DNA of 8,204 bases from Candidatus Jordarchaeales archaeon (GTDB lineage Archaea > Asgardarchaeota > Jordiarchaeia > Jordiarchaeales > Freyrarchaeaceae). Positions 1,255 to 8,204 of the stretch are shown here, one piece after another. The notes beneath the pieces are model-generated. The model did no database searches. It was not told the DNA's origin and was given only the letters and a program-made list of their open reading frames with translations. The position numbers and the translations under genes were made by a program. Every line of letters starts with the position of its first letter. Within the stretch, counting starts at the first letter, position 1. The stretch covers positions 1-8,204 of the forward strand of contig JAWCFL010000056.1 of the NCBI GenBank assembly GCA_038858525.1, read 5' to 3'.

Positions 1255-3315
1255 ATGAGTAGGAGTGGTGTAAGCTGGGTCAGCTTCGCAGCCAGCCTGC
1301 TCGGGCGAGGCAACGTTAAAATGTGGAGCAAAGATGAACTTAACGCCTCGCTCCTCCTCTTCGGAGACGTCTTAACCAAGCTCCTCCTCTTAGGATCAAT
1401 TCTTCCCATCTTGTGGCATACAGACTATCTTCCGGCATGGTACCTCTCAGCGGTTGCCGGAGTATACCATGCACCTTTCACGCTTACGGGAATTATGACC
1501 ATTCAGGGAGTGCAGATTCCAGTCGTTGTTACGGAGGGTTATCCTCTCCCTCCAGACCTCCAAATCTATGCACCCCACACACCGTGGACGCTAATATCAG
1601 CTCTCATCTCATCAAGCGCCTTTGCGACCCTAGTGGGAGGACTAGCCTACAGTTACTACGCTTACCATAAAACCGTCGAGACTGGAAAAGACTTCACAGC
1701 CCCACCATTCGGCCCAAGCCTCCCGGCAGCATTCCTGATACTAATAGGCGTCGTGGCTGCTGCCCAAAACCTCCTCGGCTTAGACATCTACACCGCTGTC
1801 TCGATAGCTATAACAGCCAACATCGCGTGCTCAATCATAGAAGCAATAATCGCCCTTATCGTAGTGGAGCGCATCAAGGGGCGTCTCCCACTTCCCGGAG
1901 TCCTCGGAGCCGCGGCAGGCATAGGATTCGCATGGATCATCGTCGGGCTCTTCAGCTTCGCAGCGGGAACACCTATAGGCGGAGTCTACGGGGCGACAGG
2001 TAACTGGCCTCAGCTTAGCCCTGCGATAGGATTGATCGTAACCGTCATGCTACTAAGTGGACTGTTATTCAAAAAGCACAGCAGGGTTCCGCCAGCTCTG
2101 GCCGCGTTGGCGATAGGCGTAATTCTGGTGGTAGCCAGCACCGTTTACGCAGGTTCAGGTGCAGGCGACTCATACCTTTACTTTAGGGAGGTTTGGGTGA
2201 GCGTCTTCGGCGGGATTGGACCCCAGTTCCTGCTAGCTTACATGTTAGGGCTTGATCCAACACCGTACGTTCACTTAGGCTGCTTCACGGCGATGTTCCC
2301 ATCGCTCCGCCTTGAATTTCTGGGAAGAGGACTTGAAGCGCTCCCATTGATCTTAGCCGTAGTCGTCCCGATTCAGGTTTACGACGTAGTGGAGAGTTAC
2401 GCCAACACGAAGGCGTGCAACCTTGAACTGGCGCGCAGAATAGGGATCAGTAGCGATGAGATTGAGAGGTGGACGGAGGAAAACGGATATTCTCCCTCAA
2501 AAATAATGCTGATAGATGCTCTTGCAAGCCTAATTAGTGTTCCTCTCGGAGGATGGGTTCCAACAGTCAACTACGTGGGCTCGGCGGGATATGTGAGGAC
2601 AGGTGCTAGAGCAGGATACCCTGTGCTGGCAGGATTACTCCTGATTTCTTTAACATGGACGGGCGTATTCTACCTCGTCCCCATGTTTCTACCCATTTCC
2701 GTAACGGCACCAATACTTCTGTTCATAGGCGGAGTAACCGTTGTTCAGGCGTTCAGAGAAGTTCATGAGGCAAACATAAAGGAAGGAGAAAAAATTTGGG
2801 GAGACTTATTCGCCGTATGCCTAGCGATGACGCCGCAGTTCTTCTCGTCGATAGCCAGCATGTTAGCCCTCAACTTCAGCCTGTCATTAACTGAAACCCC
2901 GATGAGCATGGCTCTCTCACCCTACAAGTTGCTAAACGACGTTTTCTACTTCGCCTACGAGTTTGACGGCTTAATCCTCAAGGTGCCATACGCGAAGCTT
3001 CTCGGAGCATATGGATACTGCGTAAACACAACATTCAACTACGCGTCGCTCATAACGGGATGGTCAGGGATGCTGTTCCTAGGCCTAAACGCGAGCTTGA
3101 TAGGACTTATTTGGGGGAGCATAGCTTCTGACTTGAACCATGAAAGGTTTAACCGCGCCGCAAAAACATCAATCGTTGCAGCCGTGTTATCGCTTTTGGG
3201 AGTTATGCATTCGTATTCCGTTCCACTATCAGGCCTTGAACTCTTCTCCACTCTCCCATGGGCACTGGCGTACTTAGCGGTGGCTGCATTAATTTTCTTT
3301 AGAAGACGGAAGTAG
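1255..3315 (+). CDS. NCS2 / AzgA(AGZA)-like nucleobase (probably purine) permease, 686 aa
   Basis: More than 12 hydrophobic segments. Recognisable family segments: LVGGLAYSYYAY..G.DFTAPPFGP, IEAIIALIVVERIK.RLP, VVVPIQVYDVVESYAN, LGGWVPTVNYVGSAGY..TGARAGY, APILLFIG. GGAAGGA RBS lies in the 17-bp gap after purM. Substrate is inferred from family and context. Confidence 0.75.
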   Translation: MSRSGVSWVSFAASLLGRGNVKMWSKDELNASLLLFGDVLTKLLLLGSILPILWHTDYLPAWYLSAVAGVYHAPFTLTGIMTIQGVQIPVVVTEGYPLPPDLQIYAPHTPWTLISALISSSAFATLVGGLAYSYYAYHKTVETGKDFTAPPFGPSLPAAFLILIGVVAAAQNLLGLDIYTAVSIAITANIACSIIEAIIALIVVERIKGRLPLPGVLGAAAGIGFAWIIVGLFSFAAGTPIGGVYGATGNWPQLSPAIGLIVTVMLLSGLLFKKHSRVPPALAALAIGVILVVASTVYAGSGAGDSYLYFREVWVSVFGGIGPQFLLAYMLGLDPTPYVHLGCFTAMFPSLRLEFLGRGLEALPLILAVVVPIQVYDVVESYANTKACNLELARRIGISSDEIERWTEENGYSPSKIMLIDALASLISVPLGGWVPTVNYVGSAGYVRTGARAGYPVLAGLLLISLTWTGVFYLVPMFLPISVTAPILLFIGGVTVVQAFREVHEANIKEGEKIWGDLFAVCLAMTPQFFSSIASMLALNFSLSLTETPMSMALSPYKLLNDVFYFAYEFDGLILKVPYAKLLGAYGYCVNTTFNYASLITGWSGMLFLGLNASLIGLIWGSIASDLNHERFNRAAKTSIVAAVLSLLGVMHSYSVPLSGLELFSTLPWALAYLAVAALIFFRRRK

Positions 3316-4209
3316 ACAGCTGGCTTCACCCTGCAAAGAGAAGATGGAATCGCTTTTTCCATCATTTCTCCCGTTAGAGACTAGAGTAGTTAATGGGTAA
3401 ACCTCGCTTAGCGCCGCTTCGAGGAAAAGCGAGTTGAGGGGGGTCATTTTGAGGGAGGGAGATGCAGCGCCAGAGGCAACGAGTATCCTGAGAGCCTCTT
3501 TCAGTCTGATGTCTGATGTGCCGTTCATGTAGACTCTGAGCGGGCTTCTGAGAAGGTATAGGGCGGCGTCTTGTAACCCTTTTCTTCTCAGTTCCTGAAG
3601 AGCGAGACTACAGCTTCTCGGCGGAGGAGGAGTAGCCCACACGAACGTGTCTTTTCCCACACCTTGAAGGTATATGATGCGGTTGTCGTAAAGCGTCTTC
3701 AGCACTTTTCTAGGGTTGGAGAAAAGCTTGCTTGAGACCCTTAAAACCAAGTTGACGTTAATTCCCGGTGGCATGTGAAGTATGAGGTCATAGAGCGCCC
3801 TAGCGTCCTTCCAATCGTCGTGCTCCCCTTTAAGAAGGCCACCACTGGTGACTGTAGCAGTAAGCTTTCCATCAGAAACAATGAATTTTCCAGCCGACTC
3901 AAGAAAAATTTTGCTTATCTTCTCCGCCTCGTCACCTGAAACCTTAGCCACTTCCTTTATGAGCCTTGGTAGTTCGGCTGGCACTTGAAGTAGCCTGAGA
4001 AGCCGGGCAGTAAGAGCGTACGTTTTTCCCATGAAGAACACGTCTATGTGCCTTCTTGCCTCGTAGGCGGGGAGACGCAACTCTCCACAACTAAATTTCC
4101 TGTTAAAGGAGTCAAGAAAAATTGCTCTCACGGGTCCAGCAAAGGAGGCGTTAATCGAAGCAGAGAAGGATACGGCGTCCCTGCAAGCTCGCGTAGAGCT
4201 AACAAGCAA
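3289..4209 (-). CDS. Hypothetical protein, 306 aa, third gene of the herA-nurA operon; possibly tandem degenerate winged-helix domains
   Basis: Fills the gap between nurA and the permease. TTG start 3 nt after the nurA TGA with a GGAGGGGGG RBS upstream; globular composition. No family recognised. The last 27 bp overlap the permease stop convergently. Confidence 0.8.
   Translation of the reverse strand: MLVSSTRACRDAVSFSASINASFAGPVRAIFLDSFNRKFSCGELRLPAYEARRHIDVFFMGKTYALTARLLRLLQVPAELPRLIKEVAKVSGDEAEKISKIFLESAGKFIVSDGKLTATVTSGGLLKGEHDDWKDARALYDLILHMPPGINVNLVLRVSSKLFSNPRKVLKTLYDNRIIYLQGVGKDTFVWATPPPPRSCSLALQELRRKGLQDAALYLLRSPLRVYMNGTSDIRLKEALRILVASGAASPSLKMTPLNSLFLEAALSEVYPLTTLVSNGRNDGKSDSIFSLQGEASCLLPSSKEN
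3338..3370. terminator. Stem-loop at the convergent junction; possible terminator or 3'-end structure
   Basis: GAGAA-GATGGAA (3338-3349), loop TCGCTTT, TTCCATC-AT-TTCTC (3357-3370): a 7-bp perfect stem plus 5 bp beyond a 2-nt bulge, beginning 23 nt after the permease stop. Confidence 0.35.
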
Positions 4210-4212
4210 TGC

Positions 4213-5406
4213 TCAGACCCCCCTCCCCCTCTTACCCCAGACGGCCTCTAGGCCGTGTTTAGGCTTAAACATCCTGTAGAAGACCTTTGCTTCGACACCA
4301 TTCCTCCTAGCTATCTTGATTATTCTGGTGAAGAACTCGTCAGTTAGAAAGTCAAGTAGGGGATCCTCAACGAGACTGAAGGCGTGCGCGAACTCTAACG
4401 GCCAGGGAACATTGTTCACGTTGCTTGCCTGATAATAAATAGCTGAGCAGACATACTCGAAGAGCCGCTCATCCTCCACTATGCTCCGGTGAACTTCAAC
4501 TCTTATTGGCATAGCATCATTTGGCTTAAAGTAAAAGAAGCGCATGTCTGATATGAAGTTCGCATAGTTCCCGCCGAATATCTTTCTCTTCGCCAAGTCA
4601 TCCCAGAGCTTGCTCTTGCTGGGGGACGTGATAACCAGTTTCCTCTCTCCGTTTTTGCCGGATGCTGGGAGGAGCGGGTCGAGAAGGGCTACGTCGCTAA
4701 CCCTGCCATAAAAACCTATTGATTCCGGAAGTTGAGACGAGCTTGAAATAAGCTCTGTCGAGTGAGGTGCTTTGACTATGCAGGCATGAGGGCGATCCAT
4801 GAGCTTTTCAGCCAATACGTCGGCTATTCCCCCCTCTCCATATATTCTTCTGAAAACCCTTTCATACTCCTTCTGGACTTCTCTCGAGACTCTATACTCG
4901 CGTGCGAATGGCCTATAGAACGGAAGAAGGGCATGGTGTGGGAGAATCGGGCCGTCAAGGAGGACTAAGTCACAGTTGTGGGAGTGAAGGGCGTCAAGCG
5001 CCACCAGTCGTTCAAGATACTGGCGTGAGATCGCTTCAACCCTTTCCAAGTCCTCGTCCACCATTCCTATGGTGGGAATGCACTTGGCTGCGACGCGGGG
5101 ACTATAAACAAGCGGGTTATCGCATTTAAAGAAGACAGCCACAGCCGATACCACTATAAGCGACAACCCAGCTCTTTCACTTCTGTTCGACGAGCCATCA
5201 ATACCAACAGTTAGTGCTTCCTTGGCTGCAGGGTTAACGTTCAGCTCGACAAGCTTCAAGTCTCCCCTAAAGGTCTCAATTCCCCTTATCATTGAAATGT
5301 ATGCGTTATAGAAACGCTCGGCTTCGTCTCCCAGTATTTTTAGCGCTTCATAAAATAACTGGCCCTTTTGAAGTTCTCTTTCTTCGAGTATTTTAAGAAG
5401 GTTCAA
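4213..5406 (-). CDS. nurA: NurA-family nuclease (RNase H-like fold), ~397 aa
   Basis: NurA motifs: VGIDGS (catalytic Asp), YLERLVAL (Glu), LVLLDGP (second Asp), CIVKAPHS (Lys), MPIRVEV, VPWPLEFAH (His). Likely start TTG 5406 behind GGAGGGGGTG, overlapping the herA stop; the ORF track starts at 5445. Orthology to the mre11/rad50-linked NurA is not established. Confidence 0.88.
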   Translation of the reverse strand: MNLLKILEERELQKGQLFYEALKILGDEAERFYNAYISMIRGIETFRGDLKLVELNVNPAAKEALTVGIDGSSNRSERAGLSLIVVSAVAVFFKCDNPLVYSPRVAAKCIPTIGMVDEDLERVEAISRQYLERLVALDALHSHNCDLVLLDGPILPHHALLPFYRPFAREYRVSREVQKEYERVFRRIYGEGGIADVLAEKLMDRPHACIVKAPHSTELISSSSQLPESIGFYGRVSDVALLDPLLPASGKNGERKLVITSPSKSKLWDDLAKRKIFGGNYANFISDMRFFYFKPNDAMPIRVEVHRSIVEDERLFEYVCSAIYYQASNVNNVPWPLEFAHAFSLVEDPLLDFLTDEFFTRIIKIARRNGVEAKVFYRMFKPKHGLEAVWGKRGRGV

Positions 5407-7003
5407 GACGCGCCACCCCCTCCGCGAACTCCTCATGAAGCTCAAAGACTGTCTTGCGGCCGTATCCGAGCCTTATATCCCCCTTATCAATGGACACGCA
5501 TACCGGCTCCCTTATCGGGGTAGCCATCCCGGCAACCAGAAACTCCCCCACTCCCAGCCTCGGAAGGATACCCTTTATCTCAGGGAAGTCTGTGTACCCC
5601 TCTATAGCACTCATATCGCTAGCGGCAGTAAGGCAGCCGCAAAATAAAGTGCAAAGATTCGAAAAAACAGCCTTGGAAATTCTCGATATACGCTGGTTAA
5701 CTATGGTCAAGTTAGCCCCAAACTTCCTCCCCTCCTCCGAAAGGCTGGTTATCTTCCCCAAGCAGAGGAACGGCTTCCCAACAATGACCTGCGAGTAAGC
5801 TCCCCCGGTTTCCGGAATGTAATTTTTAGCTTCATCTATCACTAGGTGTATGGGGAGACGCTTCTTGAGTATCAGGTCGGCGATTGTCCCCAGCTTCGCC
5901 TGCCTCGCCTCGAGAGGATCCTGAGAAGCATCAATCACGAGTATCCTGTTAGCTGCAAGCTTCCAAACCTTAGAGTAATCATCAATGCTACTGCCATTAA
6001 AGAAGCAGGATCCAAGCATCTTTATCCGTTTCTCTATAGCAACGCTCCAAGTCCTACTAGACTGGTCCTTACTATAAAACTCCTTAAGCCAATCGTTGAC
6101 GTAGTTCATGAATACACTCGAGTCGAGCCCAACTTCCCCCGCCAAGAAGTCCATCATGAAGAGATCGGCCGCCACCTCAACCGCCTTACGAGCCTGGGAA
6201 GGAAGCACGTCAAGCATCAGAAGCTTAACAAGGTCGCCCGAGTCTGTAGGAACAACAGGTAGATCAGAGCTCTGAAGCACCTCAAACCTACTGCAAAGCT
6301 CACCGAGATTTCCAGTAGCATACTCCCCCGTGTGATCCCAGACAAGGACATTAATCTTCTTCGACAAAGAGGATAAACCAACCAAGAAGGATGCAGCAGT
6401 CACGCTCTTCCCCATGCCAATACGGGCGAATATTCCCACACCAAGCCTCAAAATGGCAGAAGCGTCAACCTCCACAGAATAGTCCGTCTCCCTTATTCGG
6501 CCTATCTCGAAGTACTCGTCCTCCCTCGAAGGATCCTTGAAAAGCAAACGGTAATCTTCCTTACTGGCCACATAAACAGGGGAGCACGGTTTCGGCGGAT
6601 GAGCAATGCTCGCGACGCCAGGACCGACGGGTTTGCCATAAATCCTCAGCTCTCCATATTTAAGGTTCTGCTCAAGCTGAGGGATCTCACCGTAAATACT
6701 TGAAAAGTAGTTTAATACATCAGTTGTTGCCCCCCTAGTGGCGGCGTTAAGACCAGTAACCAACCCTATAACTTTAACCCCACCATGCCTAATCGTTAAA
6801 AGTTGCCCCTCGTACACATACTCGTCAGCATAGTCGAAAACCGCAAAGTTGCAGACCTTCGTGCTCGTCGGGCTTACGATAAATCCGACAGGAACTTCCC
6901 CCTTGAGAATCTGCTCTTTAGACCTCACATAGTCGTAATCCTCAACTTCTGAGCTCATGAATGCGCGCAAGAGCGCAGGATCGAAATTGTCTCCCAGAGA
7001 CAA
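5393..7003 (-). CDS. herA: HerA/FtsK-family ATPase with N-terminal HAS barrel, 536 aa
   Basis: HAS barrel (VGFIVS...EGQLLTI...VIGLV...PPKPCSPVY), IGRI strand, Walker A ARIGMGKS (6404-6427), VWDHTGEY, Walker B LVIDEAK (DEAK at 5825-5836), arginine-finger EGRKFG, sensor NQR, C-terminal LPRLGVGE. Start TTG 7003; alternative ATG 6958. Confidence 0.92.
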   Translation of the reverse strand: MSLGDNFDPALLRAFMSSEVEDYDYVRSKEQILKGEVPVGFIVSPTSTKVCNFAVFDYADEYVYEGQLLTIRHGGVKVIGLVTGLNAATRGATTDVLNYFSSIYGEIPQLEQNLKYGELRIYGKPVGPGVASIAHPPKPCSPVYVASKEDYRLLFKDPSREDEYFEIGRIRETDYSVEVDASAILRLGVGIFARIGMGKSVTAASFLVGLSSLSKKINVLVWDHTGEYATGNLGELCSRFEVLQSSDLPVVPTDSGDLVKLLMLDVLPSQARKAVEVAADLFMMDFLAGEVGLDSSVFMNYVNDWLKEFYSKDQSSRTWSVAIEKRIKMLGSCFFNGSSIDDYSKVWKLAANRILVIDASQDPLEARQAKLGTIADLILKKRLPIHLVIDEAKNYIPETGGAYSQVIVGKPFLCLGKITSLSEEGRKFGANLTIVNQRISRISKAVFSNLCTLFCGCLTAASDMSAIEGYTDFPEIKGILPRLGVGEFLVAGMATPIREPVCVSIDKGDIRLGYGRKTVFELHEEFAEGVARLEPS

Positions 7004-7093
7004 AGGACCAACCCCAGCAGACTACATAATAACTCAACTAACCATACAAACTACAAATAAATTTATTACTAATGGAAGTATATCCTATCATGA

Positions 7094-7109
7094 TATATAA
7101 ATTTTTTCC
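7094..7109 (-). promoter_or_regulatory. Candidate BRE/TATA promoter of the herA operon
   Basis: The minus strand reads GGAAAAAA-TTTATATA (purine-rich BRE then TATA box), ~90 nt upstream of the herA TTG. Confidence 0.6.
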
Positions 7110-7291
7110 TTTTTTTGTGATAGTATTGCCTTAAAAAAATTAATTATTTCGTCATGTGGTCGTATGGAAGGAGAATGTTTCTCAGAGTGCCGGAAAGGAT
7201 TCACAGGAGTTAGGTAAGATTTCGGTTTATTGTTCCTATTATAGTATAATAAATTAACGGGATTTTCGTGATAGGAACAGTCATGTTTAGA

Positions 7292-7306
7292 GGAAAAACT
7301 TATAAG
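7292..7306 (+). promoter_or_regulatory. Candidate BRE/TATA promoter of the wHTH cluster
   Basis: GGAAAAA-CTTATAAG; predicts a transcription start near 7330. The box sits in a near-palindrome (AAAAAC-TTATAA-GGTTTTT). Confidence 0.5.
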
Positions 7307-7356
7307 GTTTTTTGTGTATTGATTCTATCAAATAACTTCCGATTTTATTTTTTTGA

Positions 7357-7659
7357 GTGAAAGATTGTGGGAGTGAACGTCTGGTGGAGGACGTGTTGAG
7401 AACTCTTATGGATCTGGATAAGGCTAAGACCAGGTTGGAGGTCTTGAATGCCGTTCTAGATTATGGCCCTGTATCTCCATCCGAGGTCGCTGAGAAGCTT
7501 GGCTTATCACAGAACGCCGTTAACATTGCGCTTCACTACTTGTCTAAGAGCGGCATTGTTAGAAAAGTCGAGAGGGGGCTTTACGAGGCGAACTATGCTG
7601 TTTTCTGCAAAGCTTTTTTAGCTTTAGCCTTTAAGTTGAGAGATGTTGTTGGGAGGTGA
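7357..7659 (+). CDS. Small winged helix-turn-helix DNA-binding protein (wHTH-1), ~91-100 aa
   Basis: RLEVLNAVL..GPVSPSEVAEKLGLSQNAVNIALHYLSKSGIVRKVERGLY is a typical ArsR/MarR/TrmB-like wHTH. Alternative start GTG 7384 has GGGAGTGA 7 nt upstream. Confidence 0.9.
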   Translation: MKDCGSERLVEDVLRTLMDLDKAKTRLEVLNAVLDYGPVSPSEVAEKLGLSQNAVNIALHYLSKSGIVRKVERGLYEANYAVFCKAFLALAFKLRDVVGR

Positions 7660-7665
7660 AGGAAC

Positions 7666-7938
7666 GTGAGCATGCTTGGGGATAGTGTTTTGAGGCTTCG
7701 CGGGGGGAGCTTGAAGGTGCTGTCGCTTCTCTCGGTTTCAGTTAAGCCTCTTAGGCCGAGCGAGATAGCTGAGATTCTCGGTATGCCGTTGAAGGACGTT
7801 GGAAAGTACCTTGTGAGGCTCTCGGAGAAGGGGTTGGTTTCGAAGGTTGAGGTGAACGGTTCTCCCGGCTATGTCTCCAAAATAGACTTACTAGAGCTAC
7901 TTCTGGACCATGAGAGGCGTTTGAGGAATTTGGAGTAG
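7666..7938 (+). CDS. Small wHTH DNA-binding protein (wHTH-2), 90 aa, with C-terminal amphipathic/coiled-coil helix
   Basis: LKVLSLL...PLRPSEIAEILGMPLKDVGKYLVRLSEKGLVSKV; tail LLELLLDHERRLRNLE. Perfect GGAGGTGA RBS (7652-7659) 6 nt before GTG. Confidence 0.9.
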   Translation: MSMLGDSVLRLRGGSLKVLSLLSVSVKPLRPSEIAEILGMPLKDVGKYLVRLSEKGLVSKVEVNGSPGYVSKIDLLELLLDHERRLRNLE

Positions 7939-7952
7939 GCTGAGGTCTTACC

Positions 7953-8204
7953 TTGAGGGTTGAGGAGCTTGAAGGTGTCTTTGAACGCATACTGAGTATG
8001 CGGGAGAGCTCGCTGAAGGTTTTAGTTTATATTCTAGTGAAGGGGAAACGAGTTACCCCTAAGGAGATTATTGATGAGACAGGGTTAAGCCAGAATAGCG
8101 TCTGGAAAGCTGTTAGGCGGCTTGAGGCGGCAGGCGTTATAAGATCTGTTGAGAGGGGGTGTTACGAGGCGAATTATGGCTTCATACTAGCCCTGTTGCT
8201 TCTT
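7953..8204 (+). CDS. Small wHTH DNA-binding protein (wHTH-3), 3'-truncated by the window edge; absent from the ORF track
   Basis: Hand translation from TTG 7953 (GAGGT RBS at 7942-7946): MRVEELEGVFERILSMRESSLKVLVYILVKGKRVTPKEIIDETGLSQNSVWKAVRRLEAAGVIRSVERGCYEANYGFILALLLL, open to the window end. Shares GLSQN and VERGxYEANY with wHTH-1. Confidence 0.9.
   Translation, partial: MRVEELEGVFERILSMRESSLKVLVYILVKGKRVTPKEIIDETGLSQNSVWKAVRRLEAAGVIRSVERGCYEANYGFILALLLL

Follow-up and report, generated by a model that had tools for sequence, protein, structure and literature searches.

Conserved, widely spaced inverted repeats as candidate operators between a herA-nurA operon and a winged-helix gene array in an order of Asgard archaea

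A HerA-NurA module facing an array of small winged-helix genes

The stretch of DNA analysed here, referred to as the window, is the entire contig JAWCFL010000056.1 (8204 nt) of Candidatus Jordarchaeales archaeon (GCA_038858525.1). Its source genome is a hot-spring Asgard MAG (Jordarchaeia/Freyarchaeia) of 2.09 Mb in 63 contigs, and the window sequence is also present in hot-spring metagenomes. Two sets of genes diverge from an intergenic region of 449 bp. Leftwards, on the minus strand, lie herA (5393..7003), which encodes a divergent HerA paralog, nurA (4213..5445), which encodes a NurA paralog in the same operon, and orf306 (3289..4209), whose product is conserved after nurA in Freyarchaeia. 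Rightwards, on the plus strand, follow genes for small winged-helix (wHTH) proteins, namely wHTH-1 (7357..7659), wHTH-2 (7666..7938) and wHTH-3 (7953..8204). The last of these is cut by the contig end, and wHTH-4 continues on contig C24 (G000:C24:19-261). The start of herA is probably TTG 7003 and not ATG 6958, since the gene callers propose a protein of 536 aa and the resulting 15-residue extension (..LRAFMSSEV) matches the ATG-initiated extension found in Freyarchaeia. For wHTH-1, the conserved start is ATG 7408, which is aligned with the start in all relatives, and the in-frame GTG 7357 is unconserved. An EM search of upstream regions in G000 (n=289) recovered a purine-rich GAAG / TTGAAGA-type word near start codons, rather than GGAGG or a promoter; this word is possibly the local ribosome-binding signal of that genome.

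The genome holds three NurA-HerA pairs (G000:C28:18028-20553, G000:C10:51855-54017 and window 4213-7003), and the pair in the window scores lowest of the three against both Pfam models. Relatives of its HerA form only eight clusters in 5.8 billion proteins, and none was found in viral contigs. The product of orf306 is conserved together with herA-nurA in the order; it matched no protein family and gave only weak wHTH-like leads. The arrangement of orf306-nurA-herA divergent from the wHTH array is a conserved module, the outer neighbours of which vary between genomes. In the closed Freyarchaeia chromosome, the wHTH array is directly followed by a gene for an Arf-family small GTPase, and about 6 kb separate the module from an AbiEii/AbiEi-like toxin-antitoxin pair (L081:867-2437; G006:C1:886866-888436). 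HerA, wHTH-2 and the sites described below have a common narrow distribution. Searches at the thresholds used detected this HerA and wHTH-2 in the genomes of the order but in none of about 290 other sampled Asgard genomes; the genome G111 carries a single distant homologue of wHTH-2 without herA.

The window contig breaks inside the array, and the three adjacent wHTH paralogs counted in the original prediction fall short of the five to six that relatives hold in a row (five in genus g1 and six in the closed Freyarchaeia genome; L066:1197-2741, L069:1182-3126). All paralogs of the array have in common an RGxYEaN wing and a very hydrophobic C-terminal helix, and the most conserved of them is wHTH-2, with 74-84% identity across the order. 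Against PF01978, wHTH-1 scored 27.8 (cut-off 25.6), several other wHTH families being reached too, and the NCBIfam models for Lrs14 and Sta1 gave about 19-23 bits, far under their cut-offs of 80-90. The proteins scored weakly with ArsR and Csa3-type wHTH models, and PADLOC returned weak hits to Csa3 wHTH domains. In the AF2 monomer model of wHTH-1 (pLDDT 70), the C-terminal helix is limited to residues 77-88, about 12 residues of low confidence. A Foldseek search of the PDB with this model returned generic wHTH neighbours, none of them at E<=1e-3, a sequence search of the PDB gave weak hits to AdcR, TFE and HlyU, and the protein Atlas gave generic MarR/TrmB-like clusters of small wHTH proteins.

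Letters, spacing and conservation of the sites

Three copies of a widely spaced inverted repeat had been described between herA and the wHTH genes, and their coordinates and letters proved exact (A, 7085-7123; B, 7236-7274; C, 7325-7363). Each belongs to a 41-bp unit without strand. Site A (7084..7124) reads CCTATCA-N27-TGATAGt, with arms CTATCA at 7085-7090 and TGATAG at 7118-7123, the right arm forming part of the heptamer GTGATAG at 7117-7123; it is conserved in all relatives. Site B (7235..7275) reads CCTATtA-N27-TGATAGG, with CTATTA at 7236-7241 and GTGATAG at 7268-7274, and is conserved order-wide; in the window genome its arms extend to TGTTCCTAT (7231-7239) and ATAGGAACA (7271-7279). 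Site C (7324..7364), which is weaker and restricted to one genus, reads tCTATCA-N27-TGAAAGa, with CTATCA at 7325-7330 and GTGAAAG at 7357-7363. The spacing originally claimed also holds. It amounts to 26 nt when measured to the heptamer, to 27 nt when measured to the hexamer TGAWAG and to 33 bp from start to start, and both figures for the gap agree.

The pattern CTATYA-N26-GTGAWAG occurs three times in the 2.09-Mb genome, each time within the 279-bp stretch 7085-7363, and the two words at other spacings occur 0-2 times each genome-wide. A genome scan for more sites, which the original prediction had proposed together with a shuffle, found the pattern nowhere beyond this locus. The shuffle likewise bears out the rarity of the arrangement: with 300 dinucleotide-preserving shuffles of the 449-bp intergenic region, and counting any 6-nt inverted repeat with at most one mismatch whose copies have common arms and spacing, three copies were reached in only two shuffles and two copies in about 47% of them. 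A genome-wide count of 7-nt inverted repeats showed no peak at gaps of 25-29 nt, which indicates that such a wide geometry is not a general habit of the genome.

A scan of 11 genomes of the order found CTATYA-N27-TGAWAG at the herA/wHTH intergenic region in all of them, and a negative control with the gap one base short gave only scattered hits at control level. Conservation was followed in 15 distinct orthologous intergenic regions, 10 of them derived from genomes and 5 from further metagenome contigs. All 15 contain exactly two strong sites, A and B, with the consensus CCTATCA-N27-TGATAGG. A gap of 27 nt is invariant among the A sites, and among the B sites only those of G002 (28 nt, with two arm mismatches besides) and of the metagenome contig L101 (26 nt) depart from it. 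Arm identity across families is 0.93/0.93 for A and 0.82/0.92 for B, compared with a background of 0.37 in the A-B interval and 0.46 in the whole region (range given, 0.37-0.47). The expectation that relatives would conserve the motif is thus borne out for A and B, with both arms and spacing kept order-wide, but not for C, which is limited to the genus of the window. T-tracts had been noted in the spacer's 3' half; of these, a TT(T) run preceding the right arm is kept almost without exception, but the remaining spacer varies.

Site A lies about 125-153 nt from the herA ATG in the 15 regions. In one of the two families B lies 151 bp from A, in the second 176-188 bp, and the distance from B to the predicted wHTH promoter (block 7292-7307, see below) also varies. 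As a consequence, B has no fixed geometry relative to another element, which argues against a rigid loop or a fixed activator position. Neither site is indispensable, since some lineages have a degraded copy of one of them (A in G004, B in G002).

The sites are also unique to the locus in other members of the order. When the 14-nt consensus was searched in five genomes with up to two mismatches allowed, hits with at most one mismatch were restricted to this locus and those with two mismatches came in control numbers. At this stringency there is hence no wider regulon, and the one-locus pattern would fit a local regulator. Among 24 units, none of the 7 arm pairs was altered on both sides, so that compensatory changes numbered 0, and the covariation score equalled that of shuffles. 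This indicates that the letters are conserved and not their pairing, as expected for protein contacts. Arms and spacing kept across two families amid surroundings that are not, confinement to a single locus and the lack of covariation together amount to the operator-like behaviour that had been foreseen for these repeats.

Predicted promoters, the third site and a distant locus

The placement of the sites relative to promoters is a sequence prediction. Oriented 8-mers were counted in regions between same-direction genes of the window genome, where T-first words (TTTATATT, TTTAAATA, TTTTTATA) and A-runs leading into TTTA show a 3- to 8-fold excess in gene direction over the opposite direction. 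A TATA-like box, TATATAAAT or TTTATAAAT, is present in both A and B at unit positions 10-18. By k-mer orientation, the box in A reads towards herA in six of seven lineages. In the window, the form on the herA strand is GGAAAAAA-TTTATATA, and the box TTTATATA (7094..7103, minus strand), preceded by an A-rich BRE-like run at 7103-7109, is the predicted herA promoter. The orientation of the box in B is ambiguous by the k-mer score, and in Freyarchaeia this box is a perfect palindrome. The conserved BRE/TATA-like block GGAAAAACTTATAAGG (7292..7307, plus strand) reads towards the wHTH genes by the same measure and is the predicted promoter of the wHTH operon. Two placements in the original prediction agree with this picture: A brackets the predicted herA TATA box, which is enclosed by the arms and has flanks that read better towards herA, and B, said to end about 18 nt before the wHTH BRE, ends 17-18 nt before the conserved block.

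With the standard archaeal TATA-to-start spacing, transcription of herA is predicted to start near 7070, which would put the arms of A at about -53/-47 and -20/-14, and transcription of the wHTH operon near 7330, inside the left arm of C. A contig from an RNA library covers 7336-7589 and none covers 6851-7335, in a single low-depth run whose sparse contigs can neither fix the starts nor rule out transcription between A and B; the beginning of this contig at 7336 is consistent, as a weak hint, with a wHTH start near 7330. The actual herA promoter could instead be another TATA-like run, at 7057-7068, in which case A would lie upstream of the promoter.

The word ACTTCC, conserved across families, is found at 7335..7340 (plus strand), just past the predicted wHTH start, and the same word occurs beside A on the herA strand at 7075-7080; it also lies between A and B (7165-7172). 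In several lineages this word, read as TGGAAGG on the strand opposite to herA, stands beside both A and B and on the same side. Since A and B repeat each other in direct orientation, their TATA-like boxes at equal offset, and have this word in common, B looks like a duplicate of the whole A module.

No TATA-like box is present inside C. The cross-family arm identity of this site is 0.18/0.40, and it is absent from the family's other genus and from the other family (g2, g3). Within the genus of the window, its 27-nt gap is kept in three of the four lineages, with left arms CTATCA/TTATTA/TTATCA and right arms TGAAAG/TGAAAG/CGAAAG; the left arm in G001 carries two mismatches, and the gap in G002 measures 31 nt. 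Given A and B, an extra site of the quality of C arose in 0.08-1% of shuffles of the remaining region. A change common to the three sites was seen in L101 (metagenome contig Ga0105158_1009438, 632-680 and neighbouring sites), whose HerA is 93% identical to that of the window. There, GCGA replaces the GTGA of the window in the right arm of each of the three. The background of T-to-C differences between the window and L101 is 11.8%, and three homologous changes have a p of about 0.002 before post-hoc correction. The wHTH-1 protein of L101 has the recognition helix of the window despite the arm change, its other paralogs lying off the contig. The same change turns GTG 7357 into GCG. This GTG thus lacks conservation as a start codon and offers no reason for the arm to be kept. 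As the original prediction states, C spans GTG 7357 and the predicted wHTH start, its left arm lying at the start predicted from the block at 7292-7307.

From these data it is plausible that C is a weaker third member of the site family, limited to the genus of the window. Alternatively, C alone could be a chance look-alike, or a by-product of constraints on the start region or 5' end of wHTH-1. We regard this as possible but doubtful: the low arm identity across families, the absence of the site from g2 and g3 and the deviations in G001 and G002 are in its favour, but a site like C is rare in shuffles, its gap is kept in most lineages of the genus and it has undergone, along with A and B, the T-to-C change in L101 that also destroys the GTG.

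A comparable arrangement exists at a more distant locus, L108 (GCA_014730365.1, labelled Heimdallarchaeota), where herA-nurA, with a HerA 62% identical to that of the window, is divergent from about six small wHTH genes. No CTATCA sites were found at L108, and no orf306 after nurA. One inverted repeat, TTATGTGTA-N27-TACACTTAA, surrounds a TATA-like box some 70 nt upstream of the first gene of the wHTH array (L108:3273-4000), and a second copy of the TATA-like element is present without arms. The repeat has the same 27-nt gap as A and B, but since one like it arises in 4-8% of shuffles, it is no more than a hint.

Candidate binders, precedents and rival readings

The explanation that we favour, with a probability of about 0.55, is that A and B, as well as C in the genus of the window, serve as operators for a regulator specific to the locus, which is most likely one of the adjacent wHTH proteins or several of them. 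For A and B there is good support for reading the sites as operators, and for C this reading is plausible. A common narrow distribution of the sites, the wHTH proteins and HerA makes these proteins the obvious candidates for the binder. Recognition helices are near-invariant in all four aligned paralog groups, and this equal conservation singles out no one paralog as the binder.

The geometry of the sites is unusual for winged-helix proteins, with half-sites three turns apart and a TATA-like box enclosed between them. The half-sites CTATCA and TGATAG are inverted, and their centres are 33 bp apart, instead of one turn, in every A site and in the B sites other than those of G002 and L101. In straight B-DNA, 33 bp would correspond to 3.1 helical turns and would present both arms on roughly the same face, on either side of the putative TATA box in A and B. 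This spacing is three times that of an ordinary winged-helix dimer, which suggests that the arms could be held by the heads of a tetramer, by two cooperating dimers or by an extended dimer. A protein bridging the arms of A would occupy DNA needed by RNA polymerase and TFB. TBP bends and unwinds the TATA box, and a rigid bridge over the box should hence compete with TBP. The archaeal wHTH repressors MDR1, Phr and TrmBL1 have sites downstream of TATA, from which polymerase recruitment is blocked (PMC4158304). As one arm of A would lie at -20/-14, where such repressors act, and competition with TBP may be added to this effect, repression is the favoured outcome. From this we infer that herA-nurA-orf306 would be kept repressed until some signal frees the protein. 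The position of C over the predicted start of the wHTH operon may add autoregulation in the genus of the window, and B could be either a second promoter-plus-operator or an auxiliary operator.

The motif is a known kind of element in a new form, in a lineage for which no description of a regulatory site was found in the literature searched. The Thermococcales glycolytic motif (TGM), TATCAC-N5-GTGATA, which is bound by TrmBL1/Tgr (PMC4158304), is likewise an inverted repeat with half-site letters TATCAY / RTGATA and is read by a winged-helix protein, and the position of the site relative to BRE/TATA sets repression versus activation by TrmBL1. However, the gap between those hexamers is 25 nt here compared with 5 in the TGM, that is, 20 bp or two turns longer, and a TATA-like box lies between the halves. 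The candidates here are proteins of 83-123 aa without a second domain and thus lack the sugar-binding C-terminal effector domain of TrmB. Moreover, the TGM serves many promoters of one pathway in Thermococcales, whereas the present motif is found at one locus in Asgard archaea. Repressors of the MDR1, Phr, LrpA and Lrs14/Sta1 type (PMC4158304, PMC11841832) resemble the system proposed here as small regulators encoded beside their target, with palindromic sites that overlap promoters, and a mechanism of blocked polymerase recruitment combined with autoregulation would be expected by analogy. Their half-sites are about one turn apart and on one side of TATA, in contrast to the three turns that enclose TATA here.

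A precedent for DNA-reading heads held far apart could be Sso10a, an archaeal protein of about 95 aa with a wHTH, a C-terminal helix and several paralogs, as far as the 2004 work is reported where it is cited (PMC4941522). By the same report, Sso10a differs in being architectural, with little sequence specificity, and neither the sequence search nor the Foldseek search of the PDB linked the wHTH proteins to it by sequence or fold. The mark of an Sso10a-like extended dimer would be a long C-terminal helix in an antiparallel coiled coil, compared with the low-confidence helix at 77-88 in the model of wHTH-1. A functional parallel is offered by the wHTH regulator Csa3a of Sulfolobus islandicus, which recognises imperfect palindromes in the promoters of nurA-herA operons that stand by themselves (PMC5587795). 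Csa3a is an activator with a CARF sensor domain and acts from upstream of the promoter, whereas the candidates described here have no CARF domain and come as five to six paralogs, and their putative sites enclose the TATA box.

Other readings of the sites have to be weighed against operators for the adjacent wHTH proteins. The sites could be operators for a different binder, either the orf306 protein, whose gene belongs to the putatively controlled operon and which may comprise more than one winged-helix unit, or a regulator whose gene lies elsewhere. With multiple domains a protein could reach across 40 bp, orf306 is conserved with herA-nurA in the order and has only weak wHTH-like leads, and no one wHTH protein stands out; but orf306 matches no family, L108 keeps a wHTH array beside herA-nurA with no orf306 after nurA, and sites confined to one locus usually belong to a neighbouring regulator gene, which together make such a binder unlikely. 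It is also conceivable that A and B arose by duplication of a core promoter module (arm, BRE, TATA, arm, ACTTCC), the hexamers of which are read by the basal machinery or by a specialised TFB/TBP. This would account for the direct repetition of A and B with the TATA-like box at the same offset, for the TGGAAGG/ACTTCC word on the same side of both in several lineages and for the left arm, which abuts the TATA box at the position of a BRE-type element. We nevertheless consider this reading quite unlikely, given that in five genomes no other promoter carries the pair of hexamers, that C has the arms without a TATA box, that inverted symmetry with a fixed 27-nt gap is foreign to known basal elements and that the coordinated arm change in L101 includes C.

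Far less weight goes to two further possibilities. The AT-rich region, with repeated inverted words that are unique in the genome, might suggest a mobile or replicating element, with the repeats as its replication-origin boxes, centromere-like sites or recombination sites. Yet the locus is chromosomal and syntenic across the order, no orc1/cdc6, whiP, integrase or ParA gene was found within 17 kb of it in the closed Freyarchaeia chromosome, the HerA is without relatives in viral contigs and the arms measure only 6-8 bp, in only two to three copies. The initiator, centromere-like and recombination alternatives left standing by the original prediction thus find no support and are very improbable. 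Hardly credible, finally, is a hairpin formed by the arms in RNA or single-stranded DNA, acting as a leader structure or processing signal. Although pairing is possible in 89% of cells and some variants would be tolerated as G-U pairs on one strand, the variants that pair on one strand break pairing on the other, site B of L101 carries both kinds, and the absence of compensatory changes and of covariation beyond shuffles has been described above. The stem would have 7 bp with a loop of 27 nt, and an Rfam search of the window gave no match.

Returning to the wHTH proteins as binders, it is tempting to consider a more specific model, in which the 41-bp units would be docking sites for a hetero-oligomer of the five to six wHTH paralogs. 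Arrayed along four turns of one DNA face, the oligomer would clamp the TATA box between two outer specific heads, the 27-nt gap remaining fixed and the arm letters drifting with the proteins (GCGA in L101, possibly GTGTA/TACAC in L108). A complex prediction for wHTH-1 to wHTH-4 gave a score of 0.25 (mark 0.32), which counts neither for nor against it. We hold this model to be rather unlikely. If true, a lineage-specific HerA-NurA machine of Asgard archaea would be under the control of a promoter-specific clamp made of multiple subunits.

Asgard archaea are the closest known relatives of eukaryotes, and no description of a regulator-operator pair from them was found in the literature searched. 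If operators for the adjacent wHTH proteins are confirmed at this locus, they would provide a case in which a TBP/TFB promoter is controlled by holding the DNA that flanks it rather than by covering one side. The 41-bp site, with its sharp letters and spacing, and a few candidate proteins of less than 125 aa, which can be produced recombinantly even though the organisms are uncultured, form a compact and testable pair. Confirmation would also give a handle on when the divergent, order-restricted HerA-NurA-orf306 module is switched on, and hence on its purpose.
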